Below, one piece after another: positions 1,830 through 56,723 of a stretch of 64,000 nucleotides of DNA. Where the stretch lies: NCBI GenBank assembly GCA_036522835.1, contig DATDFB010000057.1:3906-67905 (forward strand), read 5' to 3'. Each line of letters begins with the position of its first letter. Positions within the stretch are counted from its first letter, which is position 1. The DNA is from Thermoanaerobaculia bacterium. GTDB lineage: Bacteria > Acidobacteriota > Thermoanaerobaculia > Gp7-AA8. Position numbers and translations under genes: made by a program. The notes beneath the pieces are model-generated. The model did no database searches, was not told the origin of the DNA, and was given only the letters and a program-made list of their open reading frames with translations.

Positions 1830-2335
1830 CCGCGCCGTTCGTTTGCATCGTCATGGGCTCCGACTCCGACGCCGAGGTCATGGCGCAGGCGTGCGCGGCG
1901 CTCGACGAGCTGGGCGTCCAGTACGAGATGAAGGTGGCGTCGGCGCACCGTTCGCCGGAGCGGACGAAGCAGGTCATCGACGAGGCCGAGCGCGGCGGCG
2001 CGGCGGTCTTCATCGCCGGCGCCGGCATGGCCGCGCATCTGCCGGGCGTCGTGGCCAGCTTCACGACGAAGCCGGTCATCGGCGTGCCGCTCGCGGGAGG
2101 CGCGCTGCAGGGCTTCGACGCGCTGCTGGCGATCGTGCAGATGCCGCCGGGGATTCCGGTGGCGACGGTCGCGGTCGGCGGGGCGCGGAACGCGGGCGTG
2201 CTGGCGGCGCAGATCATGGCCGCGTCCGACGCGGCGCTGGCGGCGCGCTTGAAAGAACAGCGGGTCAAGATGGCCGAGGCGGTGGCGCAGAAGTCGAAGA
2301 AGGTGGAAAAGTCGACGCGTAGAGTGTCATCCTGA
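1826..2335 (+). CDS. purE: N5-carboxyaminoimidazole ribonucleotide mutase
   Basis: GTG at 1826 overlaps the purD stop (GTGA). CIVMGSDSDAEVM, ASAHRSPERT and AGAGMAAHLPGVVAS..T.PVIGVP match the PurE family. An alternative ATG lies at 1853. The last codons and the stop lie inside the palindromic repeat at 2324-2403. Confidence 0.92.
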   Translation: MTAPFVCIVMGSDSDAEVMAQACAALDELGVQYEMKVASAHRSPERTKQVIDEAERGGAAVFIAGAGMAAHLPGVVASFTTKPVIGVPLAGGALQGFDALLAIVQMPPGIPVATVAVGGARNAGVLAAQIMAASDAALAARLKEQRVKMAEAVAQKSKKVEKSTRRVSS

Positions 2336-2403
2336 GTCGCGCAGACGGCGAAGGATCCCCTCGGCGGGGGGTTCCTCACCGTCTGCGCGGCTCGGAATGA
2401 CAC
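2324..2403. repeat. REP-like palindrome, family GTGTCATYC...GRATGACAC
   Basis: ~36-bp arms: gtgtcatcctgagtcgcgcagacggcgaaggatcccc / ggggttcctcaccgtctgcgcggctcggaatgacac. Related copies at 18401-18479 and 45109-45213, with a half copy at 37755-37785. Confidence 0.85.
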
Positions 2404-3308
2404 ACGCACCGCACGCGCATGCCGACCTATCGCGCAAGCTCCTCATCGCCACGATCGCCACGGCCGTCTTCGTCGTCGTCGAGCTGATCGCCGGCATCGC
2501 CGCCAACTCCCTCGCGCTCATCGGCGACGCCTTCCACAACTTCACCGACTCGCTCGCGCTGGTCCTTGCGCTCGTGGCCGTGCGCATCGAGCGGCGGCCG
2601 GCAAACGCCACCAAGACCTACGGGTATCACCGCGCCGGCGTGCTCGCCGCGTTCATCAACTCCGGGACGCTCGTCGCCTTCACGATCTACATCTTCTACG
2701 AAGCGTGGCACCGGCTGCGCGTGCCGCACGCCGTCGACAGCCGGGCCATGCTCGTCGTCGCCGCGGTCGCGTTCGCGCTCAACGCCGCCATCACCTGGTG
2801 GCTGCACGACGAAGGGCGCGAAGACCTCAACGTCCGCAGCGCCGTGCTGCACATGCTCGGCGATGCGGCGTCGTCGGTCGGCATCGTCATCGCCGCGCTG
2901 CTCATCGCCCGCACCGGCCGGCCGTTCTGGGACCCGGCCATGTCGGTCTTGATCGGCATCCTGATTTTGTGGAGCAGCTTCGGCGTGCTGCGCGAGGCGG
3001 TGAATCTGTTGCTCGAAGGGACGCCGCCGGGCATCGATCCCGGCGCGGTCACGCGCGCCATCGAGTCGGTCGAGGGCATTCTCGGCGTGCACCACCTGCA
3101 CATCTGGGGGCTCGGCTCCGCGCGGCGCGCGCTCTCCGCGCACCTCATCGTCGGCGACGTGCCGCTCGCGGCCACGAGCCAGCTCCTCGGCCGCGTGAAC
3201 GCGCTGCTGCACGACCAGTACGGCATCGAGCACACCACCATTCAGTTCGAGCTCGCCGATTGCCCCGAGGAGGATCCGTACTGCTTGCCTATTTCGCGGG
3301 AGTCGTGA
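2397..3308 (+). CDS. Cation diffusion facilitator family metal efflux transporter (CzcD/ZitB-like)
   Basis: 303 aa. His-rich N-terminus (HAPHAHAD), six hydrophobic segments, IGDAFHNFTDS and LHMLGDAASSVG (TM2/TM5 metal-site HxxxD motifs), C-terminal cytoplasmic domain with HHLHIWGL. The ATG lies inside the right arm of the repeat. Confidence 0.9.
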   Translation: MTHAPHAHADLSRKLLIATIATAVFVVVELIAGIAANSLALIGDAFHNFTDSLALVLALVAVRIERRPANATKTYGYHRAGVLAAFINSGTLVAFTIYIFYEAWHRLRVPHAVDSRAMLVVAAVAFALNAAITWWLHDEGREDLNVRSAVLHMLGDAASSVGIVIAALLIARTGRPFWDPAMSVLIGILILWSSFGVLREAVNLLLEGTPPGIDPGAVTRAIESVEGILGVHHLHIWGLGSARRALSAHLIVGDVPLAATSQLLGRVNALLHDQYGIEHTTIQFELADCPEEDPYCLPISRES

Positions 3309-4806
3309 CCGTCACCTTCGTCACGCCGAACGGCAGCAGCATCGCGAAGTTCGGCGCGACGGCGTAGAACGGGCGGAGGTCGATCGGATTGCCGAGGAGC
3401 GCCGTGCCCGCTTTCGCACAGAGATCGCCCGTGCGGAGCATGTTCTCGATCGGGCGCTTCACGCGCATGGTCGGATAGAGCGCGTTCACCTCGTCGCGCA
3501 GGTTGCCTTGCGGCTTCTCTTTGTACTCCTTCGTGAACGACGTGACGGCGAGCTGATTGCCTTTCAGCTCCGCCTGCCAGGCCACGTGCGGCGCGCCCTC
3601 GGACGGGAAGCCGTCGTACCCGCCGTGGAAGAGAACCCCCGCCGGCGTCACCTCGGCGGCCATGTCGATGAGGTGTCCGCACGCGGCGGCGTTGACGTAT
3701 GACACATCCTGCCTGGCGATGCGATTCTGCGCGTCGTAGGTGTAGCGCGACGTGACGGCCTGCCCGTCGAGCACGAGCTCCTCGCGGTCGAGCAGCCACG
3801 CCTCGCCCGCTTTGTGCGCTCGGAAGTCGAGGAGGCCGGCGCGCTCGAGGTAGTCGGCGCCCTGCACGAGGCCCGGCCCGCTCAGGATCTCGCCGTCGTA
3901 CGTCCACCCCTCGCGCTTGCGCGCGTCCTGGATCTGCTTCTGCTTCACCGGCGTGTAGCGAAGGTCGTCGAACGGCACGCACGACAGCGTCTCGTTTCTG
4001 GCGACGCGGTCGTCGGCGTAGAACGACGTGCGCGTCGCGCCGTCGCTGCACGCGCGCGCATTCGCGTACGGCCCGTGCCAGCAGCGCGGGCACCACATCG
4101 CCCCCGTGGGGAGGCGGAGGCCGCAGAACGAGCAGACGATCTTCGTCTTCATGTCGTCGATCTCGCTCTCGAGCGCGAGGATGTGCGGCTCGATGTCCGC
4201 CTTTGACGCGGCGTCGAGGCCGGCGTAGCGGTGGAAGCGCTCCGCGGCCGTCGCCAAGTCGCCGCGCTTCTCGAAGATCACCGCCTCGTTGTAGACCGGC
4301 GCCGGGTCGTTCGGCCGCTTCTGCTCCGCGTCCTGAAAGAGCTTGAGCGCGGCGTCGTAGTCGCCCTTTTGGTAGAGGAAGCGGCCGCGCGTGAAGATCT
4401 CCGTGTACTCGTCCTCGGCCTGTTTCTTCTTCTGCAGCTCGCGCTGGAAGTCGAGCTCGAGCTGGAGCTTGGCGAGGTTCTCCTTTTCCGGTCCGGCCGG
4501 GTAGAGCTGGTTGTAGCGGTCGACTTTCTGCTGGGCCTCGGAGACGCGCCCGGCCTTGGCGAGCGTGAGGGCCATGTCGTACAGCACGCCGGCGACGTCG
4601 GGCTGCAACTGATCGGCCTTCGCGAACTGCGCGTAGGCCGCGGTGTAGTCCTTCATCGAATAGAACTTCTGGCCGAAGAAGACGGCCTTGGTGAACTCGT
4701 CCTCCGGCTGCTGCGCAAGACCGAATGCAGAATGCAGGATGCAGAATGCAGAAACGAGCAGCACCGCTCGCCATTCTGCATTTTGCATTCTGCATTCTGC
4801 ATTCAT
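3289..4806 (-). CDS. Exported TPR-repeat protein with internal zinc-ribbon (CSFCG...CPRC) and unknown C-terminal domain
   Basis: This is the C-terminal 505 codons of track ORF 3289..6636. The ATG at complement 4804-4806 overlaps the upstream gene's stop (ATGA). N-terminus MNAECRMQNAEWRAVLLVSAFCILHSAFGLAQQ is signal-peptide-like, followed by TPR-like helices (YTAAYAQFAKADQLQP..., YDAALKLFQDAEQKRPND...). No family recognised for the last ~280 aa. Confidence 0.7.
   Translation of the reverse strand: MNAECRMQNAEWRAVLLVSAFCILHSAFGLAQQPEDEFTKAVFFGQKFYSMKDYTAAYAQFAKADQLQPDVAGVLYDMALTLAKAGRVSEAQQKVDRYNQLYPAGPEKENLAKLQLELDFQRELQKKKQAEDEYTEIFTRGRFLYQKGDYDAALKLFQDAEQKRPNDPAPVYNEAVIFEKRGDLATAAERFHRYAGLDAASKADIEPHILALESEIDDMKTKIVCSFCGLRLPTGAMWCPRCWHGPYANARACSDGATRTSFYADDRVARNETLSCVPFDDLRYTPVKQKQIQDARKREGWTYDGEILSGPGLVQGADYLERAGLLDFRAHKAGEAWLLDREELVLDGQAVTSRYTYDAQNRIARQDVSYVNAAACGHLIDMAAEVTPAGVLFHGGYDGFPSEGAPHVAWQAELKGNQLAVTSFTKEYKEKPQGNLRDEVNALYPTMRVKRPIENMLRTGDLCAKAGTALLGNPIDLRPFYAVAPNFAMLLPFGVTKVTVTTPAK
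4722..4805. repeat. Hairpin repeat, GCAGAATGC family (diverged copy), inside the 5' end of a CDS
   Basis: gaatgcagaatgcaggatgcagaatgcagaa ... ccattctgcattttgcattctgcattctgcattc forms ~30-bp imperfect inverted arms. Related to 16330-16428 and 19813-19925. Confidence 0.75.
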
Positions 4807-5915
4807 TGCAGCAGCGCCTCCACCACCCCGCCCACCCAATCGTCGATCACCGGCGACGTTGCCAGATACGAGTAGAGTGCGTGGCGCTTCTGCTCCGACG
4901 GCGCGCTCGGGTTGCGCAGCACGCCCGCAGGATCGGGCATCAGGTCGACCACGACGTCGCGCGCGTCGCGCGGCGCCCAGTGCGAGGGCATGTCGCTGCC
5001 GAAGAGCTTCGACACGAGCGCAAGGCGGTCGCTTTCGCCGTGCGCGGCGCGCGCGGCGGCGGCGAGGCGGCCCTTCGAGCTCTCGATGAGCATGCGAAGA
5101 TTGGATAGCACCTGCAGCCGGCGCGTGCAGGCCTCGAGGATCTTGACGTCGGAGAGGGCCGTGCTGGCGGCGAGGATCTTCTGGATGCGGTCGGTCTCGA
5201 CGGAGATGAACGCGTCGGCCGGATCGTCGGCAGGGGGCGCCGGCTCGTCGACCTTCACCTCCGGCGTGGCCGGCGTGGCCACCGGCGCGGGCGGCATGGC
5301 CGGCGTCGGCACGATCTCGGCGAGCGGCAGATCGGAGATGGCCGGCGCATCGCCGATCTCGCTCTTCGGCATGCGCAGATCGGCCGGCTCGTTGGCGATC
5401 GCCGCCGGCGGCGGAGCGGGCGGCAGCGGCACGAGCTTCGCCGCACCGAACGGCGAGCCCGCCGGCGCGGCGGGGTCGCGCATCAAATCCGAATCCGTCG
5501 GCACTTCGGCGTCCATCAGCCGCTCGCGCACGCGCAGCCGCGTGTCGCCTGCCTGGCGCAGTTGAGCGTTGCGGGCCACGTCGTTGAGGTACGTCGCGCT
5601 CATGTCGCAGTGGCAGGGGCCGAAGTTGTCGGGCAGGTAGCGCTTGTCGTTGCGCTGGCGGTAGAAGTCGACGACCGCGGCGTTGTGGCGCATGGCCGCG
5701 TCGCGGGCGCGCTCGCAGGCGGCCTGCGAGGCGAACTGGTTGATGCCCGAAAACTCGTTGAAGCCGCGTAGTTCCGGGTTGTACATCTGCACGTGGTAGT
5801 GGAAGACGTCGCAGTGCGCCGGGGGCGTCGCAGAAGGCGGGCAGAGCAGCGCCTGCCCGAGGGCCGAGCCCGCCGTCACCGCCGCCACGAGAAAAACGCT
5901 TACGCGAAGCCGCAT
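4803..5915 (-). CDS. Exported hypothetical protein (Cys-containing N-domain, Pro-rich linker, helical C-domain)
   Basis: Track ORF 4803..5969. The best start is MRLRVSVFLVAAVTAGSALGQ (ATG at complement 5913-5915), because upstream codons are translation of a palindromic repeat. PPAPPPAA/PAMPPAPVATPATP linker. No family recognised. Confidence 0.65.
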   Translation of the reverse strand: MRLRVSVFLVAAVTAGSALGQALLCPPSATPPAHCDVFHYHVQMYNPELRGFNEFSGINQFASQAACERARDAAMRHNAAVVDFYRQRNDKRYLPDNFGPCHCDMSATYLNDVARNAQLRQAGDTRLRVRERLMDAEVPTDSDLMRDPAAPAGSPFGAAKLVPLPPAPPPAAIANEPADLRMPKSEIGDAPAISDLPLAEIVPTPAMPPAPVATPATPEVKVDEPAPPADDPADAFISVETDRIQKILAASTALSDVKILEACTRRLQVLSNLRMLIESSKGRLAAAARAAHGESDRLALVSKLFGSDMPSHWAPRDARDVVVDLMPDPAGVLRNPSAPSEQKRHALYSYLATSPVIDDWVGGVVEALLQ

Positions 5916-5975
5916 GTGGAGCGCGCCGGCCATGCCGGCGCCGTAAGAGCGGCGGCATGGCCGCCGCACTCCACA
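5916..5975. repeat. REP-like double palindrome, family TGGAGTGCGGCGGCCATGCCGCCGC
   Basis: gtggagcgcgccggccatgccggcgc-cgtaaga-gcggcggcatggccgccgcactccaca. Same architecture as 48434-48491 and 51917-51975. Confidence 0.85.
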
Positions 5976-9972: not shown

Positions 9973-10046
9973 CGGGAGGTCGATTTCTCGATTCTGAATT
10001 CGGAATTCCAAGTTTCGCAATTCCGGGGCCTGCCTCCCGTGTTTTA
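9971..10046 (+). terminator. Long hairpin with U-tract after hbd (possible terminator)
   Basis: ACGGGAGG (9972-9979) pairs with CCTCCCGT (10033-10040), followed by GTTTTAAT. There is an internal GAATTCGGAATTC palindrome. The loop is long, so function is uncertain. Confidence 0.35.
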
Positions 10047-10060
10047 ATCCGCACTCGAAC

Positions 10061-11933: not shown

Positions 11934-11958
11934 TGGAGTGCGGCGGCCGCACTCCACA
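11934..11958. repeat. Minimal copy of the TGGAGTGCGGCGGCC...CACTCCA palindrome
   Basis: tggagtgcggcggccgcactccaca is a perfect hairpin. It lies between the convergent stops at 11929 and 11979 and is a possible bidirectional terminator. Confidence 0.75.
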
Positions 11959-16329: not shown

Positions 16330-16428
16330 CACGGAAACTTAGAACGCAGAATGCGAATGCAGAATGAAGAAAGCTTCGCCGGCGATTTCTCAATTCTGCA
16401 TTCGCATTCTGCGTTCTGAATTTCCGTG
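16330..16428. repeat. ~100-bp hairpin repeat, AGAACGCAGAATGCGAATGCAGAATG family
   Basis: cacggaaacttagaacgcagaatgcgaatgcagaatgaagaaa ... tttctcaattctgcattcgcattctgcgttctgaatttccgtg. The arms are nearly identical to the copy at 19813-19925. Confidence 0.9.
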
Positions 16429-16717: not shown

Positions 16718-17776
16718 ATGCGAGTCCTGCACCTCGCCGCCGGAAACCGCTGGACCGGAGCCGCCGCGCCGGCGTTCGCCGAGGTGGCGGCGCTGCGCGA
16801 GGCGGGAGTCGATGCGCACTACGCCTACGTCGGCGGCTACAAGCTCGAGCAGAAGCTCGCCCACGTCGGCTTCGCCCACCCCGCGATCGCCAAGGCGCAG
16901 AATCCGCTGTCGTTCCTGCGCACAGCCACGAGGCTCGAGCACCTCATCGACCACCACGGCTTCGACGTCGTGCACGCGCACCTCACCTACGATCACGTGC
17001 TGGCGCGGTTCATCGCCAAGCGGGAGAAGGTGCGGATCGTGCGGACGTTCCACTCCCGGCGGGTGATCCGCGGCGACGTCTTCACGCGGGCGCTCGTCCG
17101 GCGCACCGACGCGATTTGCGTGATCAACGACGCGCTCGCCGAGGCGGCGCCGATCCGCGGCCGTTTCGCGCTCTACACACCGCCGCCGCTCGACACGCGG
17201 CAATTCACGCCCGAGGGGCCGGACTTGCGCGGGGCCTACGGCGTCGAGGGCGATGCGCTGCTCCTCGTCGCCATCGGCAAGCTCGATCCCGCGCGCGGCT
17301 TCGAGGACGTGCTGCGGACGTACGCACTGGTACGGCAGGCCATCGCCACGGCGCGGCTGATGATCATCGGCCACGGCCCGCACCGCCCGGCGCTCGAAGC
17401 GCTGGCGAGCTCGCTGCAAATCGAGCCGATCTGGGCCGGTTATCACGAGGACGATCTCGCCGAGCACTACCGCGCCGCCGACGTGCTGCTCTTCACCGCG
17501 CGCGGCTCCGACGAGGGCCACCGCGCCGTGATCGAGGCGATGGGCTGCGGCGTCGTGCCGGCGACGTATCGCCTCGACGGCATGCCCGCGATCCTCGGCG
17601 AGCTCGGCGCGGAGTCGCTGGCGGCGTCGCCGGCGCCGCAGGCGCTGGCCGAGCGCGTGATCGCCATCGCCCAAGGCGATCTCGCCGCATCGCGCCGCGC
17701 GGCGTTCGCACGGTCGGCGGAGTTTTCGTACGGGAAGGCCGCGGAGCGGCTGATGAAGCTGTACGAGTCGCTCTAA
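16718..17776 (+). CDS. Glycosyltransferase, GT-B fold (GT4-like)
   Basis: In-frame part of track ORF 16520..17776 starting MRVLHLAAGNRWTGAAAPAF. C-terminal half reads LMIIGHGPHRPALEALA...AADVLLFTARGSDEGHRAVIEAMGCGVVPA, typical of GT4 retaining transferases. Confidence 0.82.
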   Translation: MRVLHLAAGNRWTGAAAPAFAEVAALREAGVDAHYAYVGGYKLEQKLAHVGFAHPAIAKAQNPLSFLRTATRLEHLIDHHGFDVVHAHLTYDHVLARFIAKREKVRIVRTFHSRRVIRGDVFTRALVRRTDAICVINDALAEAAPIRGRFALYTPPPLDTRQFTPEGPDLRGAYGVEGDALLLVAIGKLDPARGFEDVLRTYALVRQAIATARLMIIGHGPHRPALEALASSLQIEPIWAGYHEDDLAEHYRAADVLLFTARGSDEGHRAVIEAMGCGVVPATYRLDGMPAILGELGAESLAASPAPQALAERVIAIAQGDLAASRRAAFARSAEFSYGKAAERLMKLYESL

Positions 17777-18396: not shown

Positions 18397-18400
18397 ATGA

Positions 18401-18479
18401 GTGTCATTCCGAGCCGCGAAGACGGCGAAGAATCCCGTGCCTGCCGGCAGGGGGTCCCTCGCTCCGCTCGGGATGACAC
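18401..18479. repeat. REP-like palindrome, family GTGTCATYCCGAGC
   Basis: gtgtcattccgagccgcgaagacggcgaagaatccc...cctgccggcagg...gctcgggatgacac. It fills the gap between the kynB-like start and the upstream gene's stop. Confidence 0.85.
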
Positions 18480-39176: not shown

Positions 39177-39206
39177 ACAGCGGCGGCATGGCCGCCGCAC
39201 TCCACA
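39177..39206. repeat. Half copy of the GCGGCGGCATGGCCGCCGCACTCCACA palindrome abutting the hflX ATG
   Basis: acagcggcggcatggccgccgcactccaca is followed immediately by the ATG at 39207. Confidence 0.85.
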
Positions 39207-40460
39207 ATGCCTGAAACTGCCATCGCCGTAGGACTTCTCCTGCCGGACACATCGCGTACCGTCGCCGACGAGCACCTCGACGAGCTCGAGAAACTGATCG
39301 AGACGGCCGGCGGCAACGTCGTCGCCAAAATGCTGGCCCGCCGCCCCGCGCCCGATCCCGCCACCTTCGTCGGCAAGGGGAAGGCGGAAGAGATCAAGGT
39401 CATCGCCGAGAATCACGGCGCGCAGCTCGTGGTCTTCGACGACGACTTGAGCCCCGCGCAGGTGCGCAACCTCGAGAAGATCACGGGCGTCAAGGTCATC
39501 GACCGCAGCGGCCTCATTCTCGACATCTTCGCCGGCCGCGCGCGCAGCCGCGAGGCGCGCACGCAGGTGGAGCTGGCGCAGCTCGAGTACACGCTGCCGC
39601 GCCTCACCCGCGCCTGGACGCACCTGGAGCGGCAGGCCGGCGGCATCGGCACGCGCGGCGTCGGCGAGACGCAGATCGAGCTCGACCGCCGCATCATCCG
39701 CAACCGCATCGCCCACCTCAAAGAAGAGCTGCGCAAGATCGAGCGGACGCGCGTCACGCAGCGCAAGGCGCGCAGCAGCGCCTTCACCGTCGCGCTGGTC
39801 GGCTACACGAATGCCGGGAAGTCGACGCTCTTCAACCAGCTCACGCGCGGCGGCGCCGAGGCGGTCGACAAGCTGTTCGCCACGCTCGATGCGAAGTCGC
39901 AGCGCGCCGCGTTCGAGATGCCGCGCGAGACCGTCGTCATCGACACCGTCGGCTTCATCCGCAAGCTGCCGCACAACCTCGTGGCCTCGTTCCGCTCGAC
40001 GATGGAGGAGGCGGTCGCCGCCGACCTCGTGCTGCACGTCATCGATGTGAGCCATCCACAGTACGAAGAGCAGCGCACCGTCGCCGAGGAAGTGTTGAAA
40101 GAGCTCGGCGTGCCGGCGGAGCGGGTCATGGAGGTCTACAACAAAGTCGACCGCGCCGAGACCATGATCCGCCGCAAGGGCGCCGTCGGCGTGTCCGCGC
40201 TGACGGGGCGGAACATCGACAAGCTGGTCGATGCCATCCGGCAGCGCGAGCTCGAAGGCGGCGAGGTCGTGCAGCTCGAGATCCCGCACTCCGAGCCGAA
40301 GCTCCTGGCGGAGCTGCACGAGACCGCGGTGGTGTACGCGCAGACGGCATCCGACGACATCACGGCCGTCACGGCGTGGCTGCCGTTCGAGGTCCTGCCG
40401 CGATTCACCGAGTACCGGCGGCCCGACGTGGCCGCCGCCGCGCGCGCGACGCTCAGGTGA
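39207..40460 (+). CDS. hflX: GTPase HflX
   Basis: 417 aa. N-terminal HflX domain (FVGKGKAEEIK), GYTNAGKSTLFNQLT (G1), DTVGFIRKLPH (G3), NKVD (G4). Confidence 0.93.
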   Translation: MPETAIAVGLLLPDTSRTVADEHLDELEKLIETAGGNVVAKMLARRPAPDPATFVGKGKAEEIKVIAENHGAQLVVFDDDLSPAQVRNLEKITGVKVIDRSGLILDIFAGRARSREARTQVELAQLEYTLPRLTRAWTHLERQAGGIGTRGVGETQIELDRRIIRNRIAHLKEELRKIERTRVTQRKARSSAFTVALVGYTNAGKSTLFNQLTRGGAEAVDKLFATLDAKSQRAAFEMPRETVVIDTVGFIRKLPHNLVASFRSTMEEAVAADLVLHVIDVSHPQYEEQRTVAEEVLKELGVPAERVMEVYNKVDRAETMIRRKGAVGVSALTGRNIDKLVDAIRQRELEGGEVVQLEIPHSEPKLLAELHETAVVYAQTASDDITAVTAWLPFEVLPRFTEYRRPDVAAAARATLR

Positions 40461-41532
40461 TCGTGCGCAAGCGGTCGTTGATGACGCGCGTCCGCCCGCC
40501 GGCGTTGATGCGCAGCTCGAGACCCGGCTTGCCGTCCAGATCGGACGCGCCGAGGTACGTCCATGCCGCGCCGGCCGTGTAGGTGAAGCTCGATCCGTCG
40601 GCATCGTGGTAGATGTCGATGGCGCTTCCCACGTTGAACACGAGATCGTTGCCGGGCCGCCCATCGGTGTCGACGGCGTCGACCAGCGTCCACCCTTTCG
40701 TGCTGACGAGGTGGCTCGTCACGGTGCCGCCGGCGTCGTGAATGATGCGAACGGCCGATCCGATGTTGAGAATCAGCTCCGCGCCCGCCTTGCCGTCGAG
40801 ATCGGCGGCGCGCATGAACTTCCACGAGCTGCCGCCGTCGTAGTCCCTCGACGCGCCCGTGCCGGCGTGAACGATCCGGATTTTGGAGCCGAGATTCAGC
40901 ACCAACTCCGCGCCCGGCAGTCCGTCGAGCTCCGCCGAGGTGACCAACGCCCACGCCGGCCCGAGAGCCGGAAAATCGACGACGCTGTTGCTGCCGTCGC
41001 GGATCACGCGGAGCGTCGATCCGAGATTCACCGCCAGCTCGGCGCCCGGCTTCCCGTCGAGCTCCGCGATCGTGACGACCGTCCAGACCGGGCCGAGATT
41101 CGCAGTATCGCTCGAGGTGCCGGCCGCGTCGTGAATGATGCGGATCGTCGAGCCGAGGTTCAGCACGAGCTCCGCGCCGGCTTTGCCGTCGGTATCCACC
41201 GTGGCGATCAGCTTCCACGCCGCCGCCGCGTTGTAGTCCTGCATCTTGCCGGTCGCGTCGCGGATCACGCGGATCTTCGCGCCGAGATTGAGCACGAGCT
41301 CCAGGCCGGGTCGGCCGTCGAGATCGGCCGCGCCCGCGAAGGCCCACCCGGCGCCGGCGGCGTACGTGTTCGACGTTCCGTTCGCGCGCTGCACGCGGAT
41401 CGTGGCGCCCTCGTTGAAGACCTTCTCGGCCGCACCGTCGCCGTTCGTGTCCCAACTGCCCATCAGGATGCTGCCGGCAGCCATGGCATCCGAGGCGAGG
41501 AGAAAGAGGGTCAGGAGCCGGAGAAACCGCAT
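40453..41532 (-). CDS. Exported beta-propeller protein with about eight FG-GAP-like DxDGxxGxE repeats
   Basis: Start at MRFLRLLTLFLLASDAMAAG (complement 41530-41532). Seven full ~42-aa repeats plus one partial, e.g. DLDGRPGLELVLNLGAKIRVIRDATGKMQDYNAAAAWKLIATV. The 3' end overlaps the hflX stop by 8 nt. Confidence 0.75.
   Translation of the reverse strand: MRFLRLLTLFLLASDAMAAGSILMGSWDTNGDGAAEKVFNEGATIRVQRANGTSNTYAAGAGWAFAGAADLDGRPGLELVLNLGAKIRVIRDATGKMQDYNAAAAWKLIATVDTDGKAGAELVLNLGSTIRIIHDAAGTSSDTANLGPVWTVVTIAELDGKPGAELAVNLGSTLRVIRDGSNSVVDFPALGPAWALVTSAELDGLPGAELVLNLGSKIRIVHAGTGASRDYDGGSSWKFMRAADLDGKAGAELILNIGSAVRIIHDAGGTVTSHLVSTKGWTLVDAVDTDGRPGNDLVFNVGSAIDIYHDADGSSFTYTAGAAWTYLGASDLDGKPGLELRINAGGRTRVINDRLRTIT
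40456..41454 (-). repeat. Internal ~126-bp coding tandem repeats (propeller blades)
   Basis: The repeated peptide pattern D-[LT]-D-G-[KR]-[PA]-G-x-E-L-V-L-N-L-G-S-x-I-R-[IV]-I recurs at about 42-aa spacing through the ORF. Confidence 0.8.
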
Positions 41533-42873: not shown

Positions 42874-43079
42874 GCAGAACGCTCGCACTCTGCCAACGCT
42901 CGGGAGAACGACCGGGAGGCCTCCGGCGGGCGGGCACGGCCCGCAGCGTTTGTTGGCGCGCAAATCATGTTTCCTGCGAAACCCGTACGTTCGGCCGGAG
43001 GCAACCAGCGCTGCGGGCCGCGCCCGCCCGCCGGAGGCCCTTCGTCGTCCCCTGCGTTGGCAGAGTGCGAGCGTTCTGC
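42874..43079. repeat. 206-bp nested palindrome (MITE-like or structured-RNA-like) between the ccsA-like gene and hemA
   Basis: Outer arms form a perfect 26-bp inverted repeat: gcagaacgctcgcactctgccaacgc (42874-42899) / gcgttggcagagtgcgagcgttctgc (43054-43079). Inner arms 42914-42948 / 43009-43040 are about 32 bp with 1-2 mismatches. About 60-nt central region. Confidence 0.85.
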
Positions 43080-44355: not shown

Positions 44356-45356
44356 GCGAGACAATCCGCATCGGCACGCGCGGCAGCCAACTCGCGCTCT
44401 GGCAAGCCAACGAAGTGTCGAACCGGCTCAGCGAAATCGGCTACCGGCCGGAGATCGCGGTCATCAAGACGACGGGCGACAAGCGCACCGACGTGCCGCT
44501 GTCGTCGGTCGGCGGCAAGGGCCTCTTCATCAAGGAGCTCGAGGAGGCGCTGGCGCGGCGCGAGATCGATGTGGCCGTGCACTCGCTCAAGGACGTGCCG
44601 TCGCTCGTCCCCGAGCCGTTCGTGCTGGCCGGCTTCCTCGAGCGCGCCGACGCCCGCGACGCCTGGGTGCAGCTCGACGGCACGCGCATCGAGGAGCTGG
44701 CTGCAGGCGCGGTCGTCGGCACGAGCGCGCCGCGGCGGCGCGCGCAACTGCGGCTGCTCTTTCCGTCGCTCACGCTCGAGGAGATGCGCGGCAACGTCGA
44801 CACGCGCATCAATAAACTGCGCGCCGGCTTGTACGACGGCGCGGTGCTGGCGTCGGCCGGACTCATTCGACTCGGCCGTTCCAGCGAGATCACCGCGCAG
44901 TTCGACGTCGACCAGATGGTGCCGGCCGCGGGGCAGGGCATCGTCACGATCGAGTGCAACAAAGACGACGATCGCGCGCGCCAGGCCGCCGCGGCGATCA
45001 ACCACCATCCCAGCGAGGCCGCGGCGCGCGCCGAGCGCGGCGTGCTGCAGAAGTTCGGCGAGGCGCTCGACTGCTACTCCGCCGTGGCCGTGCATGCGAC
45101 GTGGGCCCGTGTCATTCCGCGTCGCGAAGACGGCGAGGAGTCCCGTGCACACGACGACGGCGATGCTCCGTCGGCAGGAGATCCTTCGCCGTCTTCGCGG
45201 CTCGGGATGACACGTCTCAAGATCCGCGCGTTCTTCGGCGAGCTCGAAGGCGAGCGCCATTTGCACGTCACGCGCGAAGGCGACGAGGCCGACGCCGTCG
45301 TGCAGCAAGTCTTCGACGAGCTCGTCGACCGCGGAGCCATGGAGCTGCTCAAGTGA
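44352..45356 (+). CDS. hemC: Hydroxymethylbilane synthase (porphobilinogen deaminase) with in-frame repeat-derived insertion
   Basis: Last 335 codons of track ORF 42240..45356. ATGA overlap with hemA. IRIGTRGSQLALWQA, HSLKDVP, RGNVDTRINKL, and the cofactor Cys in EALDCYSAV. Contains a 35-codon insert, (R)VIPRREDGEESRAHDDGDAPSAGDPSPSSRLGMTR. Confidence 0.93.
   Translation: MSETIRIGTRGSQLALWQANEVSNRLSEIGYRPEIAVIKTTGDKRTDVPLSSVGGKGLFIKELEEALARREIDVAVHSLKDVPSLVPEPFVLAGFLERADARDAWVQLDGTRIEELAAGAVVGTSAPRRRAQLRLLFPSLTLEEMRGNVDTRINKLRAGLYDGAVLASAGLIRLGRSSEITAQFDVDQMVPAAGQGIVTIECNKDDDRARQAAAAINHHPSEAAARAERGVLQKFGEALDCYSAVAVHATWARVIPRREDGEESRAHDDGDAPSAGDPSPSSRLGMTRLKIRAFFGELEGERHLHVTREGDEADAVVQQVFDELVDRGAMELLK
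45109..45213. repeat. REP-like palindrome (GTGTCATTCC...GGGATGACAC), 105 bp, in frame inside hemC
   Basis: gtgtcattccgcgtcgcgaagacggcgaggagtccc ... ggagatccttcgccgtcttcgcggctcgggatgacac. About 36-bp arms, about 33-nt loop. Length 105 = 35 codons. Confidence 0.88.
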
Positions 45357-46810: not shown

Positions 46811-47062
46811 CGCCTCGTCAGCCGCAGTACGGCGGGCACTCGCCAGAGGTTGCGCAGCAGCAACAGACCGCGCAGTGAATGTGCTGATGCTCGCACGTAA
46901 ATCGTCACCGTTGTAGTGCGACTCGCACTCGCTCCGTCCCGGTCTCGTTCCAGGTGCCGAACGCGAAGGCAAAACCGGCGCGCCCGTTCAACTTCGCCAA
47001 GGACGGCCGGCGACGCATGGACACATCAGCGGCGCGGCCGCCTGCGCGGTTGGCGGTGTGGC

Positions 47063-50000
47063 ATGCCATACGAATGCCAGTCAGGCTTGGACGCCGCCGC
47101 CCTCAGCTACACTCCGCGCGTGCCGCGCGTCCTCAAAGCCTCGCTCTGGCTGGCCGCCTTCTTTTTCGCCTGCGGTATTTTCCTCGGCACGACGCAACTG
47201 CTTCGGGCCGTGCCGCCGACGCCGCACGTGGCCGTGGGGCGGGTGACGGTCGAGAACGCGTCGAAGCTGCGCGAGTACCTCACGGCGCTCCTCTTTTTCG
47301 TCCTCGTCCCGCCGCTGACGATCGGCCTCTATCGGCTCGGCTCCCGGCAGCTCGAGCGGTTTCCCGGCACCCTTCCCTCGGCACTCTTCGTCGCGCCATT
47401 TTTCCTCGCGCCGTTCCTTTATCTGACGACGTTCAAGTGGGGCTGGCCGCTCATCATCCCGCTCGCGGCGTCGCAGCTCGGCCCGCGCGCGCTGCTGCTC
47501 TTCCGGCGCACGCGCTGGCTGCGACAGCTCCTGGCGATGAAAGCGTTCAACGCCCTCATCGCCGCCGAGGCGCTGGCGTGGATCCTCTTCTTCTACATCG
47601 GCACGTGGCACCGCATCGCCCACATCGCCACGCTCTTTCTCGAGATCGTCTTCGTCGGCTTCTTCATCGCCCTCTTCTGGTGCGCCTTCGCCCTGATCGC
47701 GCGGATCGCCTCGTTCACCGGCGGCATCGACATCGAGGTCGCGTTCCAGAGAGTCGCCGCCGGCGCGCTGCCGCTGATCATCCTGCCGGCGCTCGGCCTT
47801 CGCTTCGTCCCGGCGCACATCGCCATCTCCACGGTCATGGCCGTGACGTTCGCGACGATCGCGATGGTTCTGCAAGGCAAGGAGCCGGTCGATGCGAGGC
47901 GCGTCCGCAACGTCACCGCGTACGTCATCTTCCCGCTCCTCCTCTATTGCGTCAGCTACGCCTCGACCGCGGCGCTCTCGCAGTGGATCGACCTCTTCCA
48001 CCGCGGCGAGTCGCTCGGCCCAGCCTTCGACTACCTCCGCGGCAAAGTCCCGTACCGCGACGTCTTCGTCCTGCACGGCCTGCTCGAGGACGGCCAGCTC
48101 GACGCCTGGCTCTTCCAGCTCTTCGGCCGCAATGCCGGCATCGCCCTGGCGCGGCCCGTGATCCTAGGCTCGTTCGCCGTGCCGGCGCTCTGGTACGTCG
48201 GCATGGCCATCTTCGACTCGATCCCGCTCGCGGCGCTGGTGATGCTCCTCGGGGCCGTGACAACGGTCGACAACGAGCGCGAGTTGTGGGAGATCCTCGT
48301 CCTGGCGCTGCTCCTCGGCGCGCTGCGGCGGAAATCGAAAATGCTCTATGTCCTCAGCGGCGTCGCCGCCGGCGTCACGCTCTTCTTCAGCTTCGACATC
48401 GGCCTCTACTCGATCGCCGGCGGCTTGATCGTTTGTGGAGTGCGGTGGCCACGCCACCGCTCTGACAGCGGCGGCATGGCCGCCGCACTCCAGATCTTCG
48501 GCATCGCGATCGGCACCGCACCGTTCATCGCATATCTGGCGAGCAAAGGTGCCGTTAAAGCCTTCTTCGAAACCTCCTTCGTCACGATCCCGCGAATCAT
48601 CGACGCCGTCTGGTCGCTCCCCTTTCCCGACCTCACCTCCACGTTCCGCAGCAAGAATCTCAACCTCCACACACTCTCCGACTTTTTCCTCTACGAGCAC
48701 TTCCGCTACATCCTCAATCCGCTCGTCATCTGCCTGGCCATTCTGGTGCTGCTGTGGCGGCGCAAGCGGTGGGAGTGGATCGACACCGCCCTCTTCGCGC
48801 TCACGATCTTCGCCGTCCTCACCCAGCGCAGCGCGTTGGGCCGCGCCGACTTCCCGCATCAATACTTCTCCGCGTTTCTCATCGGCCCGATGATCCTCAT
48901 CCTCCTCGTGCTTCTCGCGCGGGCGGGGCAGTGGTCGGTGGCGCTGCTCGTGCCGCTGCTCGCCGTCGTGCTGTGGGTGCCGGACATCGCCAACGGCCGC
49001 ATCGACGACACCTGCCACTACCAGGGCCGCGTCAGCGGCACCATTCGCGACCCGAAGGCGGAGGAGGTGCGCAACCGCATCGACGCCGTGCGCTACTGGG
49101 TCTGGCAGCACAGCAAGCCGAATCAGCCGATCTTCGACTTCTCGAACCAGCCGGCGCTCTACTTCTTCTGCGAGCGGCCGAATCCGACGCGCTTCTACCA
49201 GGTGCCGATCCTCTCGCCGCCGGCGCTGCAGCGCGAGACGATTCTGGCGCTCGAGCGCGCGAAGCCGCCCGTCGTCATCCGGCGCTCGCCGCAGGAGTTC
49301 GACGTCTTCGACGGCATCGACAACGCCATCCGCGCGCAGGCCGTGGCCGCGTATCTCGACGACTTCTACGTCTTCGCCCACACCACGCGCGGCGTCGAGG
49401 TGTGGGTGCGCAAGGCGCCGGCGCCGCAGCTCAATCTCGCCGGTTACATGCGCCGCTACCGCATCCCCACGCTCGAGGAGCTCGGCACGATCGGCGGGCG
49501 CTCGCGCGTCGTCTTCCCGACCGTCGGCACCGTGCCGGGCGTCGGCGGTGCGTACTGGCGCTCCGATTTGATGCTGCACAACCCGTGGAAGGAGACGATC
49601 TCGCTCGACCTCCGTTACGTCGCCGGCGACGTCCGCGCGCACCGCAACGTCATCCTAGGCGCCGGGCAGAGCATCGTCTGGCCCGACGTCGTACGCACGT
49701 TCTTCGGCGCGCCGGAGAGCCGCGGGGTGCTGTGGATCGAGTACCGCGGCACGAACGCGCCCGTCGCGCGGGTGAAGACGTCCGATGTCGCGCACGAGGC
49801 GAAGGCGACGATCGACGCGCCGCTGACGCTCGCCGGCTCCGCGACGGCCGGGACGCCGAGCGACGACCTGACGATTTTCGGCCTCCCCTCGACGAAGGAC
49901 CGGCGGATCAACATCGGCATCGTGAACGTCGGCGCGATTCCGGCCACGTTCCGCATCACGGCGCGCTCGCGCACCGGGCAGCCGATCGGCAGGCCGATCG

Positions 50001-50188: not shown

Positions 50189-50736
50189 TCGAGCTCGCGT
50201 TGCCCTGGGGCGATCGCGCCATCGCCATCCGCGACGTCGACGATCCGGAATCGTGGCTGCGCGGAGACGAGCTCGCGGTCGCGCGCGCCTTCCCGCGCGA
50301 GAAGCGCAGACAGGAGTGGATGCTCGCCCGCGCCGCTGCGAAAGTGCTCGCGCGCCGCCGCGGCCTCGGCGACATCGCCGTCGAGCGCCCGCTCGTGTCG
50401 GTCTCGCACTCAGGCCCGTGGGCCGCGGCGGCGATCGACACGATGCCGGTCGGCATCGACATCGAAGTCGTGCGCGACGTCAGCGAGCGCGCCGCGCGGC
50501 ACTTCCTTACCGAGGAGCAGATCGCGCAGATGGAGTCATGCACGATTCCGCATCGCCTGCTGCACTTCTGGTGCGCAAAGGAGGCGGCATGGAAGCGGCT
50601 GTGCGGCTCGATTCCGTTTCTGAAAGGCGTCCCGCTGACGCTTCTGGAGTGCGGCGGCCATGCCGCCGCTTTCGATTCCGTGGAGACGATCGAGCTCGGC
50701 GGCGTCGTCGTCGCCCTCACGCGCCCCACTTCTTGA
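50185..50736 (+). CDS. 4'-phosphopantetheinyl transferase superfamily protein (Sfp/EntD-like)
   Basis: In-frame part of track ORF 50110..50736 from MIELALPWGD (ATGA overlap with the upstream gene). SVSHSGPWAAAA, PVGIDIEVV, FWCAKEAAWK (W/FxxKEAxxK). Confidence 0.8.
   Translation: MIELALPWGDRAIAIRDVDDPESWLRGDELAVARAFPREKRRQEWMLARAAAKVLARRRGLGDIAVERPLVSVSHSGPWAAAAIDTMPVGIDIEVVRDVSERAARHFLTEEQIAQMESCTIPHRLLHFWCAKEAAWKRLCGSIPFLKGVPLTLLECGGHAAAFDSVETIELGGVVVALTRPTS
50645..50670. repeat. Half copy of the TGGAGTGCGGCGGCCATGCCGCCGCT palindrome in frame in the PPTase gene
   Basis: tggagtgcggcggccatgccgccgct translates as LECGGHAAA near the PPTase C-terminus. Confidence 0.8.
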
Positions 50737-51916: not shown

Positions 51917-51975
51917 GCGGAGTGCGGCGGCCATGCCGCCGCTGTAACAGCGCCGGCATGGCCGGCGCACTCCAC
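51917..51975. repeat. REP-like double palindrome abutting the fmt ATG
   Basis: gcggagtgcggcggccatgccgccgc-tgtaaca-gcgccggcatggccggcgcactccac is followed directly by the ATG at 51976. Confidence 0.88.
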
Positions 51976-52836
51976 ATGCGCCTGCTTTTTTTCGGAACCC
52001 CGCAATTCGCCGTGCCGACACTCGAGGCCATCGCGCGCGAGCACGAGGTCGTGCTCGTCGTCGCGCAGCCCGACAAGCCCGCGGGCCGCGGCATGCATCT
52101 GCAGGCTCCCGCGGTGGTCGTGCGCGCGCGCGAGCTTGGGCTGCCGGTGGCGCAGCCGCCGAAGATCCGCGACTTCGCGCCGCCCGCGGCCGAGGCGGCG
52201 ATCGTCGTCGCGTACGGAAAGATCCTGCCGGCGGCGCTGCTCGCCACGATGCCGTTCTACAACGTGCACGCGTCGCTGCTGCCGAAGTACCGCGGCGCGG
52301 CGCCGATCCAGCGTTCCATCGAGCACGGCGAAGCGGAAACGGGCGTGACGATCATGCGCATCGACGAGCAGCTCGATCATGGGCCGACGCTGCTGGCTGC
52401 GTCGACGGCAATCGACCCCGATGAGCATTCGCCGGGGCTCGGCTCCCGGCTTTCGGCTCTCGGCGCGGATTTGATGCGGCGGGTGCTGCGCGAGCGGCCG
52501 GCCGAGGTCGAGCAGGACCACGCGCGGGCCACGCTCGCGCCGAAGATCGACAAGGAGGAGGGACTCGTCGACTGGAGCGCCCCGGCGCGGGCGATCTACG
52601 ACAAGTTCCGCGCCTTCGATCCATGGCCCGGGATTTTCACGGACACGATGAAGTTGATCGACGTCGCGCCGGCTTCCGGCCAGGGCGCGCCGGAAAGCAT
52701 CCTCGCCATCGACGACGGCGTCGTCGTCGCTTGCGGCGAGGGCGCGCTGCGCGTGCGCACGATCCAGCGCGCGGGAAAGCCGCGCGTGAACGCCGCCGAC
52801 GTGGCGCGCGCGGAACGCTGGCGCGTCTTCCCATGA
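51976..52836 (+). CDS. fmt: Methionyl-tRNA formyltransferase
   Basis: In-frame part of track ORF 51922..52836 from MRLLFFGTPQFAVPTL. AQPDKPAGRG and NVHASLLPKYRGAAPIQRSI. Confidence 0.93.
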   Translation: MRLLFFGTPQFAVPTLEAIAREHEVVLVVAQPDKPAGRGMHLQAPAVVVRARELGLPVAQPPKIRDFAPPAAEAAIVVAYGKILPAALLATMPFYNVHASLLPKYRGAAPIQRSIEHGEAETGVTIMRIDEQLDHGPTLLAASTAIDPDEHSPGLGSRLSALGADLMRRVLRERPAEVEQDHARATLAPKIDKEEGLVDWSAPARAIYDKFRAFDPWPGIFTDTMKLIDVAPASGQGAPESILAIDDGVVVACGEGALRVRTIQRAGKPRVNAADVARAERWRVFP

Positions 52837-53984
52837 ACGAGCGCCAGCGCGCGCTGCACCTCCTCCGCCGCATCGAGCGCGAGCAGGCGTTTGCCGCGCC
52901 GCTTCTGGCCCAGGAATCCGGCTTCGTCCGCACGCTCGTCCTCGGCGTGCTGCGCTGGCGCTCGCGTCTCGACTTCGCCGTGTCGGCACACGCGAAACGA
53001 AAAATCGACGATCAAGTCCTCGATGTCCTCCGCCTCGGCGCGTACCAACTGCTCTTCATGGACATCGCCAAGTACGCCGCCGTCGCGGAGACAGTGGAGC
53101 TCGCGCCAAAGCATGCGCGCGGCTTCGTCAACGCGATGCTGCGGCGCGTGACGGACGTCGAGCCCAAAGATCTCGCCACCCGCACCGCCCACCCCCCCTG
53201 GCTGATCGCGCGCTGGGTGCGCCACTACGGCGAGGAGCGCGCCGCGCGCATCGCCGCCGCGAATCAGGAGCTGTCGTATCCGGACGTGATCGCGAACGAG
53301 CCGCCGCCCGAGGCCACGCCGTCCGAGCTCGTCCCCGGCATGTGGAAGCTGCATGGATCCTCCGCCGACGTCGAAGGCATCGTTCTCGACGAAGGAAGCG
53401 CGGTCATCGGCGACCTCGCCGCGGCGACGTCAAACGACATTCTCGACCTCGCCGCCGCGCCGGGCGGGAAGAGCATCGTCGCGGCGCTGCGCGGGGCGCA
53501 TGTGGTGAGCAACGATGTCTCGATTGGACGGCTGCTCGGCGGGCGCATGCTATGCGCCCCTACCGGTAGGGGCGCACGGCGTGCGCCCCTCGTTGTCTCC
53601 GACGCGCGGCAACCGCCGTTCCGAAGAACGTTCGACACCGTCCTCCTCGATGCGCCGTGCAGTGCCACCGGCACGATCCGCAAGAATCCGGAGCTGAAGT
53701 GGCGTCTGCGCGAGGAGGACCTGCCGTCGTTCGCGAAACTGCAGCGCGAGATGCTGGAAAGCGCCGTGCGCCTCGCAAAACGCTACGTCGTCTACTCCAC
53801 CTGCTCTCTCGAGCCCGAAGAAAACGACGAAGTCGTGAACGGATTCGAACGGGAAGACGCGGCGGGCTTCGTCAACGATAACGTCCGCCGCTGGGTCGAA
53901 GACGGCGTGCTCCGCCTCACGCCCGAGTCGGGCGCGGACGGCTTCACCGCGTTTGTGCTAAGAATTCCGCCCCATGCCGCGTGA
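52833..53984 (+). CDS. rsmB: 16S rRNA (cytosine-C5)-methyltransferase RsmB/Sun family
   Basis: ATGA overlap with fmt. N-terminal NusB-like MNERQRALHLLRRIEREQAFA, ILDLAAAPGGKS, LLDAPCSATGTIRKNPE, YSTCSLEPEEN. Contains an in-frame palindromic repeat. Confidence 0.9.
   Translation: MNERQRALHLLRRIEREQAFAAPLLAQESGFVRTLVLGVLRWRSRLDFAVSAHAKRKIDDQVLDVLRLGAYQLLFMDIAKYAAVAETVELAPKHARGFVNAMLRRVTDVEPKDLATRTAHPPWLIARWVRHYGEERAARIAAANQELSYPDVIANEPPPEATPSELVPGMWKLHGSSADVEGIVLDEGSAVIGDLAAATSNDILDLAAAPGGKSIVAALRGAHVVSNDVSIGRLLGGRMLCAPTGRGARRAPLVVSDARQPPFRRTFDTVLLDAPCSATGTIRKNPELKWRLREEDLPSFAKLQREMLESAVRLAKRYVVYSTCSLEPEENDEVVNGFEREDAAGFVNDNVRRWVEDGVLRLTPESGADGFTAFVLRIPPHAA
53541..53589. repeat. REP-like palindrome (GGGCGCA...TACCGGTAGGGGCGCACGGCGTGCGCCC) in frame inside rsmB
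   Basis: gggcgcatgctatgcgcccctaccggtaggggcgcacggcgtgcgcccc translates as GRMLCAPTGRGARRAP within the methyltransferase domain. Confidence 0.85.
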
Positions 53985-56373: not shown

Positions 56374-56404
56374 CCCGTCACCTGCCAGAAGCCTGCGATG
56401 AACG

Positions 56405-56436
56405 AGCGCTCCGGGAAGCCGGAGCGTTTTTCGTTT
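56405..56436 (+). terminator. Rho-independent terminator downstream of hup
   Basis: 8-bp GC stem CGCTCCGG (56407-56414), GAAG loop, CCGGAGCG (56419-56426), followed by TTTTTCGTTT. Confidence 0.75.
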
Positions 56437-56470
56437 AAGTTGTTAGGTTCGCAGGTTGTTACGTTCTTCA

Positions 56471-56687
56471 CCGATCGAAGAGCGCACGCTTCCGATCGAA
56501 GAACGAACGCTTCAATCGGAATCGTGCGCTCTTCGATTTTAATCGTACGCTCTTCGATCTTTATCGCGCGCTCTTCGATCTTTATCGCGCGCTCTTCGAT
56601 CGGAATCGCGCGCTCTTCGATCGGAATGGCGCACTCTTCGATCGGAATCGTGCGTTCTTCGGTTGCAAGCGTGCGTTCTTCGAAAAC
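56471..56687. repeat. Array of ten 21-bp units (2 inverted + 8 direct), consensus AATCGCGCGCTCTTCGATCGG
   Basis: Direct units start at 56520, 56541, 56562, 56583, 56604, 56625, 56646 and 56667. Inverted units are at 56471-56491 and 56492-56512 (ccgatcgaagagcgcacgctt is the exact reverse complement of aagcgtgcgctcttcgatcgg). The array is flanked by GTTGTTAGG / CCTAAGAAC-type inverted sequences at 56437-56470 and 56688-56716. Confidence 0.9.
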
Positions 56688-56723
56688 AACCTAAGAACTC
56701 AACAACTTAACAACCGGATCACC

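Follow-up and report, generated by a model that had tools for sequence, protein, structure and literature searches.

The locus raises a plain question: what are the hairpin repeats strewn through it, and how did some of them come to be read as protein in otherwise intact genes? It is a 64,000-nucleotide (nt) stretch of contig DATDFB010000057.1 (positions 3,906 to 67,905, forward strand; assembly GCA_036522835.1) from a Thermoanaerobaculia bacterium, and the whole of it is called the window below. From the letters alone, a first-pass annotation had described about 20 copies of at least five families of GC-rich palindromes, repeatedly fused to coding sequence. The copies do recur, fold as hairpins, vary in presence between lineages and are tolerated in frame in intact genes. 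The reading we favour, at a probability of roughly three in four, is that the lineage carries several co-existing, small, non-autonomous hairpin repeat families that are mobile and most likely mobilised by an HUH transposase encoded elsewhere; that a tyrosine transposase associated with a repetitive extragenic palindrome (REP), known as a RAYT, is involved is a guess, made by analogy.

Every copy was found at its place in the window sequence, and about 20 in 64 kb proved a sound count, the core motifs occurring 4 to 8 times each against about zero expected for most. The family ii 24-mer has eight matches at up to three mismatches (0.02 expected), the family iii 24-mer five (0.00), the family iv 21-mer four (0.00), and the family i 14-mer, at up to two mismatches, eight (1.8). 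All 12 copies that were folded form DNA hairpins, with z-scores of −4.2 to −12.6 against 200 shuffles per copy, none of which folded as well. The elements sum to 1575 nt, or 2.5% of the window, and take up 42% of its intergenic DNA (2696 nt); 8 of the 20 listed copies (about 40%) lie wholly within coding sequence. Repeats they are, but of several kinds rather than one: REP units and their inverted doublets (REPINs) in families ii and iii, long hairpins in family i and a 206-nt palindrome, and tandem-repeat hairpins in families iv and v. Nor does the label “GC-rich” hold for iv and v, whose intergenic gaps have a GC fraction of 0.45–0.53 against 0.67 for the window. The copies are given here by kind, with their state in the orthologous loci that were aligned with the window at 81–92% nucleotide identity, namely L015 and L204 (loci from one metagenome-assembled genome, MAG, at about 90% identity to the window), L004, L206, L207 and L208.

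5916-5975: family ii doublet, REPIN-like, in the 5′ leader and adjoining the ATG of the minus-strand gene 4803-5915; not in L207/L208.
11934-11958: family ii-derived short hairpin, TGGAGTGCGGC/GCCGCACTCCA, between two convergent genes.
39177-39206, minus strand: family ii singlet, 3′ of the sulfatase stop and 5′ of the hflX ATG on the map, within a 43-nt insertion not in L015.
48434-48491: family ii doublet, in frame in the gene for a 1033-residue membrane protein.
50645-50670, plus strand: family ii singlet inside the PPTase gene.
51917-51975: family ii doublet adjoining the fmt ATG at 51976; not in L015.
24618-24641, plus strand: family iii singlet, GGTAG tag and stem of 8 base pairs (bp), inside bshC.
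32153-32209: family iii doublet 3′ of proS (z −11.1); relatives have different elements there.
53541-53589: family iii doublet, tag-to-tag, in frame in rsmB.
2324-2403: family i hairpin between purE and the cation-efflux gene (z −8.6).
18401-18479: family i hairpin inserted between two genes whose ends, in relatives, share 4 nt.
45109-45213: family i hairpin, in frame in hemC, in the beta-turn of domain 3.
37755-37785, plus strand: one arm alone, GTCATCCCGAGCGCAGCGAGGGATC, of the family i superfamily, within the gene for a sulfatase-type membrane protein.
42874-43079: nested palindrome of 206 nt between the ccsA-like stop and the hemA start, a sixth repeat family.
4722-4805, minus strand: hairpin of GAATGCA heptads at the 5′ end of the TPR gene 3289-4806 (minus strand).
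16330-16428: family iv hairpin, 20 nt 5′ of the start of a Wzy-like gene (z −12.6).
19813-19925: family iv hairpin adjoining the LigB/RidA gene start codon; not in L204/L206.
9973-10060: one-armed remnant of an iv-like element, in the spacer 3′ of the 3-hydroxyacyl-CoA dehydrogenase gene; not in the first-pass annotation.
30363-30440: family v hairpin made of octamers (GTTCTTAG), upstream of proS in the divergent spacer (z −6.7).
27821-27852, plus strand: GTTCTT repeats at the bshA 3′ end, with the overlapping bshA/slt stops.
56437-56716: palindromic insertion of 280 nt, 3′ of the HU gene terminator; not in L015.

Insertions specific to lineages, as had been claimed, are what the alignments give: for no fewer than 14 copies, some lineages carry the element and others lack it at the orthologous site. 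Those at 18401, 16330, 19813, 39177, 45109, 48434, 51917, 53541 and 56437 are missing from L015/L204, and relatives bear copies of their own at other sites, such as a family ii-like remnant in L015. The proS spacer is occupied by three different elements across lineages, and the content of the hemD spacer also differs among them.

The in-frame copies were compared with 5 to 20 orthologues in protein alignments and with L015/L204, and the claim that at least seven of them keep the reading frame was borne out, those in hemC, rsmB, bshC, the sulfatase-type gene, the membrane protein, the PPTase gene and the TPR gene all being real. It had been set beforehand that orthologues with the same peptides but no palindrome would speak for conserved protein features; the relatives instead lack the element-coded residues, which favours insertion. 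In hemC, rsmB, the membrane protein and the sulfatase-type gene these residues are simply missing from relatives, and the differences are whole codons. The copies lie in variable loops, where the relatives are short and variable:

HemC: WARVIPRREDGEESRAHDDGDAPSAGDPSPSSRLGMTRL in the window, INGHV in relatives; 34 amino acids more (net +102 nt).
Large membrane protein (1033 amino acids): CGVRWPRHRSDSGGMAAALQ in the window, short in relatives; 14 more.
RsmB: GGRMLCAPTGRGARRAPL in the window, short in relatives; 15 more.
Sulfatase-type protein: VSSRAQRGIPR in the window, short in relatives; 4 more.
PPTase: ECGGHAAA in the window, DERADALR in relatives; no net change, 8 amino acids swapped.

The HemC position holds 4–5 amino acids in about 17 orthologues with a spanning alignment, and the site measures 115 nt in the window against 13 nt in L015/L204. 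Another Acidobacteriota MAG has an independent family ii-like REPIN (TTTGGAGTGCGGTGGC...GCTACCGCACTCCAAA; L014:9514-9640) in the same HemC beta-turn. In bshC the family iii singlet codes for VGAHGVRP (8 amino acids) in a variable linker; the copy is common to the nearest relatives, the next ones having unrelated residues of about the same length, and it is an older one among the copies within open reading frames (ORFs). In the AlphaFold model of BshC (mean predicted local distance difference test score, pLDDT, 85.9) the REP-coded residues 34-42 are predicted to lie within a structureless stretch, 22-42, and the block of residues 31-40 has a mean pLDDT of 61, the lowest of the N-terminal part. 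The elements were also said to donate stop codons. They do so for purE (the TGA within GTCATCCTGAG) and for proS (the TAG of GGTAGGGG, part of the GTAG tag); the bshA and slt stops do share TTAG, but the region is the conserved end of bshA and holds no hairpin.

Families ii and iii fit the published definition of GTAG-type REPs because of their tag, 8-bp stem, 3-nt loop, dimers, multiple families and intragenic copies. The family ii unit, GCGGCGGC-CAT-GCCGCCGC, and the family iii unit, GGGCGCAC-GGC-GTGCGCCC, are both palindromes with an 8-bp stem and a 3-nt loop. A GGTAG tag is found in 5/5 family iii units and a (T)GTGGAG tag in 5/8 full-length family ii units as well as in the short copy at 11934, the three remaining full-length units having CTGGAG or GCGGAG. 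Inverted doublets occur at 5916, 48434, 51917, 32153 and 53541. The family ii stem is kept: in a set of 19 distinct variants the bases pair in 97.4% of cells, the double changes number 13 and fall on 5 of the 8 pairs, and 0/500 shuffles reach the covariation score. The exact family ii 24-mer is found on more than 120 soil-metagenome contigs with a GC fraction of 0.58–0.72, and zero times on viral contigs. Among the metagenome copies there are 72 singlets besides 74 doublets, the latter tail-to-tail; of the 99 copies that could be evaluated, 12 lie in frame within coding sequence. That some copies abut start codons is correct for the window, where three family ii copies end right at an ATG (CTCCAC followed directly by ATG at 5913-5915, 39207-39209 and 51976-51978); the fmt start codon is GTG in the relative L015. 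A general abutment of starts by family ii was considered and rejected, as it applies to 3/8 units in the window but to 4/174 in the metagenomes. Literature searches with element strings such as GTCATTCCGAG and GGAGTGCGGC returned unrelated primer matches only.

The family i termini, GTGTCATYCCGAGC/GCTCGGRATGACAC, are terminal inverted repeats, and the family belongs to a widespread superfamily, GTCATCCYGAGC...GCTCRGGATGAC, of 60–150 bp with two arm types. The copy at 2324, which codes for the last codons of purE together with its stop, merges at its right end into the ATGACAC start of the downstream gene; it is not in L207, where the two genes overlap, and is present in L208; the arms of this shared copy have diverged. 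Such decay of older copies is expected of selfish DNA. At 18401 the empty site reads GAGCGTCATGCGCC in both L204 and L206. The 206-nt palindrome, with termini CAGAACGCTCGCAC/GTGCGAGCGTTCTG, had been called unique, which it is not: it is present in L015 and its core recurs in L016 and L092. L004 lacks it, and the empty site there is TGAGGTGATGCCATG. The nearest relative has a 120-nt family i-like element at L204:3329-3451 (GTTTATCCCTCGCGAAGACGAGGGATCA...), where both the window and L206 have an empty site. Two other assemblies, L210 and L211, begin or end inside the 206-nt palindrome (at window positions of about 42935 and 42973), which suggests that such repeats fragment metagenome assemblies.

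In families iv and v the hairpin arms are tandem 7- or 8-nt repeats, and the family iv termini are CCACGGAAA/TTTCCGTGG. The copy at 16330 is present in L206 and not in L204, so that the three lineages differ. At the site of the one-armed remnant at 9973, L207 (reverse strand, about 17277-17370) has a full iv-like hairpin beginning CCACGGAA, and of the hairpin at 30363 L206 has the left arm only and L204 nothing. A test of whether the heptad hairpins run in frame into downstream ORFs gave 4/7 and was judged non-discriminating, because the heptads have no stop codon in any frame. The supposed hairpin at 27821-27852 has to be given up: these letters are the 3′ end of the bshA coding sequence (FLVLRS and the stop), which is conserved and found in relatives also. 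Between bshA and slt, L204 (13335-14914) and L206 (13460-15033) have a 1.58-kb gene (522–538 amino acids, no Pfam match) that is not present in the window at 27851-27861, where the two stop codons overlap. The insertion at 56437-56716, which had been described as flanked by family v, resembles that family only loosely and is a separate element with a 21-nt tandem array. At 56510-56683 a 21-nt unit, CTTCGATCGGAATCGCGCGCT, is repeated eight times in tandem; every unit has a core like TCGATCGA, and two inverted units precede the set. The arrangement is reminiscent of iterons or of a row of sites for protein binding, and no further copy of it was found.

The TPR gene holds the most original point, a hairpin that encodes a signal peptide. 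The ATG of this gene overlaps the stop of the gene upstream (ATGA), and the reading frame passes through the heptad hairpin to give the signal peptide MNAECRMQNAEWRAVLLVSAFCILHSAFG, followed by LAQQ. An orthologue with 95% identity has an ordinary signal peptide, VKRFLIVFFVAAAALAQQ, in the same place, coded by 45 nt where the window has 90 nt. About 33 of 120 orthologues of this secreted TPR protein (about 27%; 52–100% identical), their N-termini read by eye, begin with a polar arm and then a hydrophobic arm, and in the 5/5 cases checked at the DNA level there are perfect hairpins of 30–45 bp starting at an ATGA or GTGA start/stop overlap. Four unrelated heptads build these five: GAATGCA, GCAGACG, GGCAGAA and GCAAAAA (loci L208 and L213-L216). 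Since the arms are reverse-complementary, one codes for charged or polar residues (the n-region, e.g. KAEGRRQKAE or NAECRMQNAE) and the other for hydrophobic ones (the h-region, e.g. SAFCLLPSAF or FCILHSAF), which is the architecture of a signal peptide. A protein search with the alternative ORF of 517 amino acids (frame 3289-4795) returned no matches, so that ORF is not conserved. We put forward tentatively, at less than even odds, that hairpins of the family iv type are a distinct, undescribed class of element that is targeted to, or selected at, gene starts and read there as a signal peptide. If so, either hairpins that build signal peptides would have been captured repeatedly and site-specifically, or an RNA hairpin controlling translational coupling would be under selection.

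How would the copies have spread? By analogy with other GTAG REPs, they would be made through a single-stranded hairpin intermediate, by a tyrosine HUH transposase (RAYT or IS200/IS605-like) encoded by a single gene elsewhere in the genome and acting in trans; we take this view because of the GTAG tag, the dimers, the missing target-site duplications and the fit with the literature. Gains and losses of the repeats would occur over the time in which species diverge. Selection would purge harmful copies, leaving those 3′ of stops, between operon genes, at starts or in frame, and loops, linkers and signal peptides would tolerate in-frame elements, as any stop-free sequence fits there. The window holds no RAYT or other transposase, as had been noted, and Pfam recognised none in the genes scanned or in those with annotated identical copies. 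Several results weigh against this mechanism. Scans for HUH and Y..NP motifs in the window, 24 related loci and 120 metagenome loci, which took in several hundred kb of fetched DNA, gave no credible hit; tblastn of all fetched loci with IS200 TnpA and E. coli RayT queries likewise gave no credible Thermoanaerobaculia or metagenome hit, the sole marginal match (E = 0.015) being to a Verrucomicrobiales locus. Absence from the fetched DNA is expected, however, if there is one copy per genome of about 5–6 Mb. On contigs that differ greatly in GC the family ii 24-mer is kept exactly, a constancy beyond what REPs usually show between species. Some copies are replacements rather than clean insertions: the 8 amino acids of PPTase and, to within one codon, the linker of bshC keep their length, the 45 nt of signal-peptide DNA in the TPR gene have become 90 nt, and 12 nt of hemC have become 7 nt plus the element. 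Finally, the empty targets often resemble the element end (ATGACAC at 2397, GTCAT at 18397, GGGCAC/GTC at 45102 and GCGTGCCCG at 53541), which a simple cut-and-insert model does not predict.

These replacements, together with the likeness of targets to element ends at 2324, 18401, 45109 and 53541, give some room to another mechanism, in which homology-seeded copying from an existing copy, by gene conversion or template switching, overwrites the target, while families iv and v grow and become uniform in place by slippage and hairpin-templated repair. We consider it unlikely, though the foremost of the alternatives. The same-length or near-same-length changes in PPTase, bshC and the TPR signal peptide suit it, as do the perfect hairpins of unrelated heptads at the TPR 5′ site in different lineages, and the lack of a transposase in the scanned loci. 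So does the lack of target-site duplications: none was found at family i copies in other loci and none that was consistent in the filled/empty pairs at 18401, 19813, 39177, 42874, 45109, 56437 and 16330, the short flank matches GTCAT (18401) and ACAT (16330) being read as likeness to the element end. RAYT-type transposition, however, likewise leaves no duplication, insertion with a compensating deletion would give the same picture as a replacement, and short GC-rich matches are common by chance at 67% GC. Copying from a template also sits badly with the clean insertions of 43–280 nt at unlike sites (39177, 56437 and the 206-nt palindrome).

Could the hairpins instead be immobile, selected signals of the host, such as terminators, mRNA stabilisers or sites for RNase III or other proteins? 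Most intergenic copies do lie right after stops, between operon genes or at starts, compensatory changes preserve the family ii stem, a hairpin recurs at the TPR gene start in about 27% of orthologues, and REPs elsewhere affect mRNA stability and termination (PMC3733652). Yet the 14 or more copies missing from the same site in such close genomes, the eight copies inside coding sequence, the occupation of one site by different families in different lineages and the decaying arms of the older copy at 2324 all speak against a conserved signal; the GC hairpins are not followed 3′ by T-tracts, and an Rfam search of the whole window gave nothing at gathering thresholds and, at E ≤ 1, only sub-threshold hairpins of eukaryotic microRNAs and small nucleolar RNAs. 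As a general account host signalling is thus improbable, although individual copies may have been co-opted as regulatory or structural signals. Far less probable still is that the repeats, or their in-frame positions, are artefacts or chimeras of metagenome assembly. The window does come from a metagenome assembly, the 206-nt palindrome is a break point of other assemblies as described above, and L206 has a suspicious long poly-G run in the proS spacer that may be an artefact; but 20.4-42.2 kb of the window (21.7 kb) recurs at 99.9% identity with zero indels in three independent soil metagenome assemblies, the HemC protein including its insertion is matched exactly on four contigs from three samples, and all host ORFs are intact, with indels of whole codons. 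The preferred reading remains mobile hairpin families, for which an enzyme would be supplied from elsewhere.

As to the surroundings, the window has a GC content of 67% and 59 genes by a codon-model gene call, with very short spacers; genes named by Pfam include purD, purE, the cation-efflux gene, bshC, bshB, bshA, slt, proS, hflX, hemA, hemC, cobA-hemD, fmt, rsmB and HU. A scan of species-representative genomes with the CobA-HemD protein assigns the window, which is from an uncultured soil bacterium, to the class Thermoanaerobaculia of the Acidobacteriota; the nearest genomes are 90–92% identical in that protein, and about 20 more are at 65–73%. A tRNA-Cys called by ARAGORN at 17605-17698 is probably false, being 94 nt long and inside the glycosyltransferase gene 16718-17776. 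At 40453-41532 (minus strand) there is a gene for 359 amino acids, of no clear family, with internal tandem repeats of 129–132 nt (about six units); L015 lacks it and has in its place a mere 75 nt, part of which is a family ii-like REP remnant. The 300-nt spacer between cobA-hemD and the membrane-protein gene (46811-47113) has a counterpart of only 4 nt in L015 and no second copy among the fetched loci, and L004 has a hairpin of CAGAAGT heptads at the site instead.

In a barely studied class, and in a free-living, high-GC soil bacterium, repeats thus make up over two fifths of the intergenic DNA of the window, and about 40% of the copies are, from their sequence, predicted to be translated as parts of housekeeping proteins (HemC, RsmB, BshC, PPTase and others). 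In-frame palindromes are best known from Rickettsia and Opitutus; their occurrence here suggests that bacterial proteins may generally acquire loops and linkers, and signal peptides too, in this way. Such repeats also break metagenome assemblies, yield spurious “hypothetical proteins” and shift predicted starts and stops, which matters for the annotation of the many Acidobacteriota MAGs, and the many pairs of empty and filled sites among close MAGs can be used to learn the mode of insertion.

Among known systems, the closest to families ii and iii are the GTAG REPs and REPINs (Di Nocera et al. 2013, PMC3733652; Bertels and Rainey 2011, PMC3116915), for which GTAG/GTGG tags, dimers in inverted orientation, the co-residence of several families, copies inside genes and an association with RAYTs are described (PMC3733652). 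They share units of 24–30 nt with an unpaired 5′ GTAG (iii) or GTGG (ii) tag, a short loop on a stem of some 8 bp, the occurrence as singlets and inverted dimers in several families, and a preference for the 3′ side of ORFs. The GTAG-17 to -20 REPs of Opitutus terrae are intragenic, singlets coding for 7–8 amino acids and dimers for 20–30 (PMC3733652), and the REP peptide VGPALAAG of that species is comparable to VGAHGVRP in the BshC of the window. The differences lie in the host, for whose class, Thermoanaerobaculia, no earlier description was found; in the lack of a cognate RAYT in the scanned loci; in the family ii dimers, which are nearly all tail-to-tail whereas head-to-head ones are reported to predominate (PMC3733652); in the presence of the exact family ii 24-mer on contigs of widely differing GC; and in the copies that swap target sequence of equal length.

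In their behaviour the in-frame copies are most like the Rickettsia palindromic elements (RPEs; Ogata et al. 2000, 2002), which, as far as the summary in PMC10969869 goes, are palindromes of about 100–150 bp in frame in unrelated housekeeping genes. Both reside in frame in intact, unrelated genes, about 40% of copies being intragenic here and nearly half in some RPE families, and the family i copy in hemC (105 nt, 35 amino acids) is the closest analogue. The likeness is one of behaviour, based on a comparison of descriptions: the termini here (GTCATCCYGAGC; GTCATCC, GTAG and GTGG) differ from the CGTC tag reported for RPEs, there are several unrelated families, and in place of a reduced intracellular parasite the host is a soil bacterium that is free-living, high in GC and large in genome.

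Classical MITEs (miniature transposable elements with inverted repeats) such as Correia/NEMIS, ERIC and Nezha resemble the long hairpins in their terminal inverted repeats, their non-coding nature, a size of 60–300 bp, insertion polymorphism and occasional in-frame fusions and RNA-processing effects; they differ in their target-site duplications, of which no consistent one was found at the compared sites, and in a parent insertion sequence with the same ends, which is not in the fetched loci. For the tandem heptads the nearest likeness is to the short tandemly repeated repetitive (STRR) heptanucleotide sequences of heterocystous cyanobacteria, reportedly described by Mazel and colleagues in J Bacteriol in 1990, which are said to consist of tandem 7-nt units at many intergenic sites, with several heptamers per genome. 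Unlike these, the heptads of the window form perfect inverted pairs, that is, hairpins of 30–45 bp, lie at or across gene starts and can encode signal peptides. Because intragenic REPs are already documented in Opitutus terrae and in Rickettsia, the kind of element is a known one: what sets the window apart is the unusual density and diversity of its REP/REPIN and MITE-like repeats, which reside in frame in the manner of RPEs.

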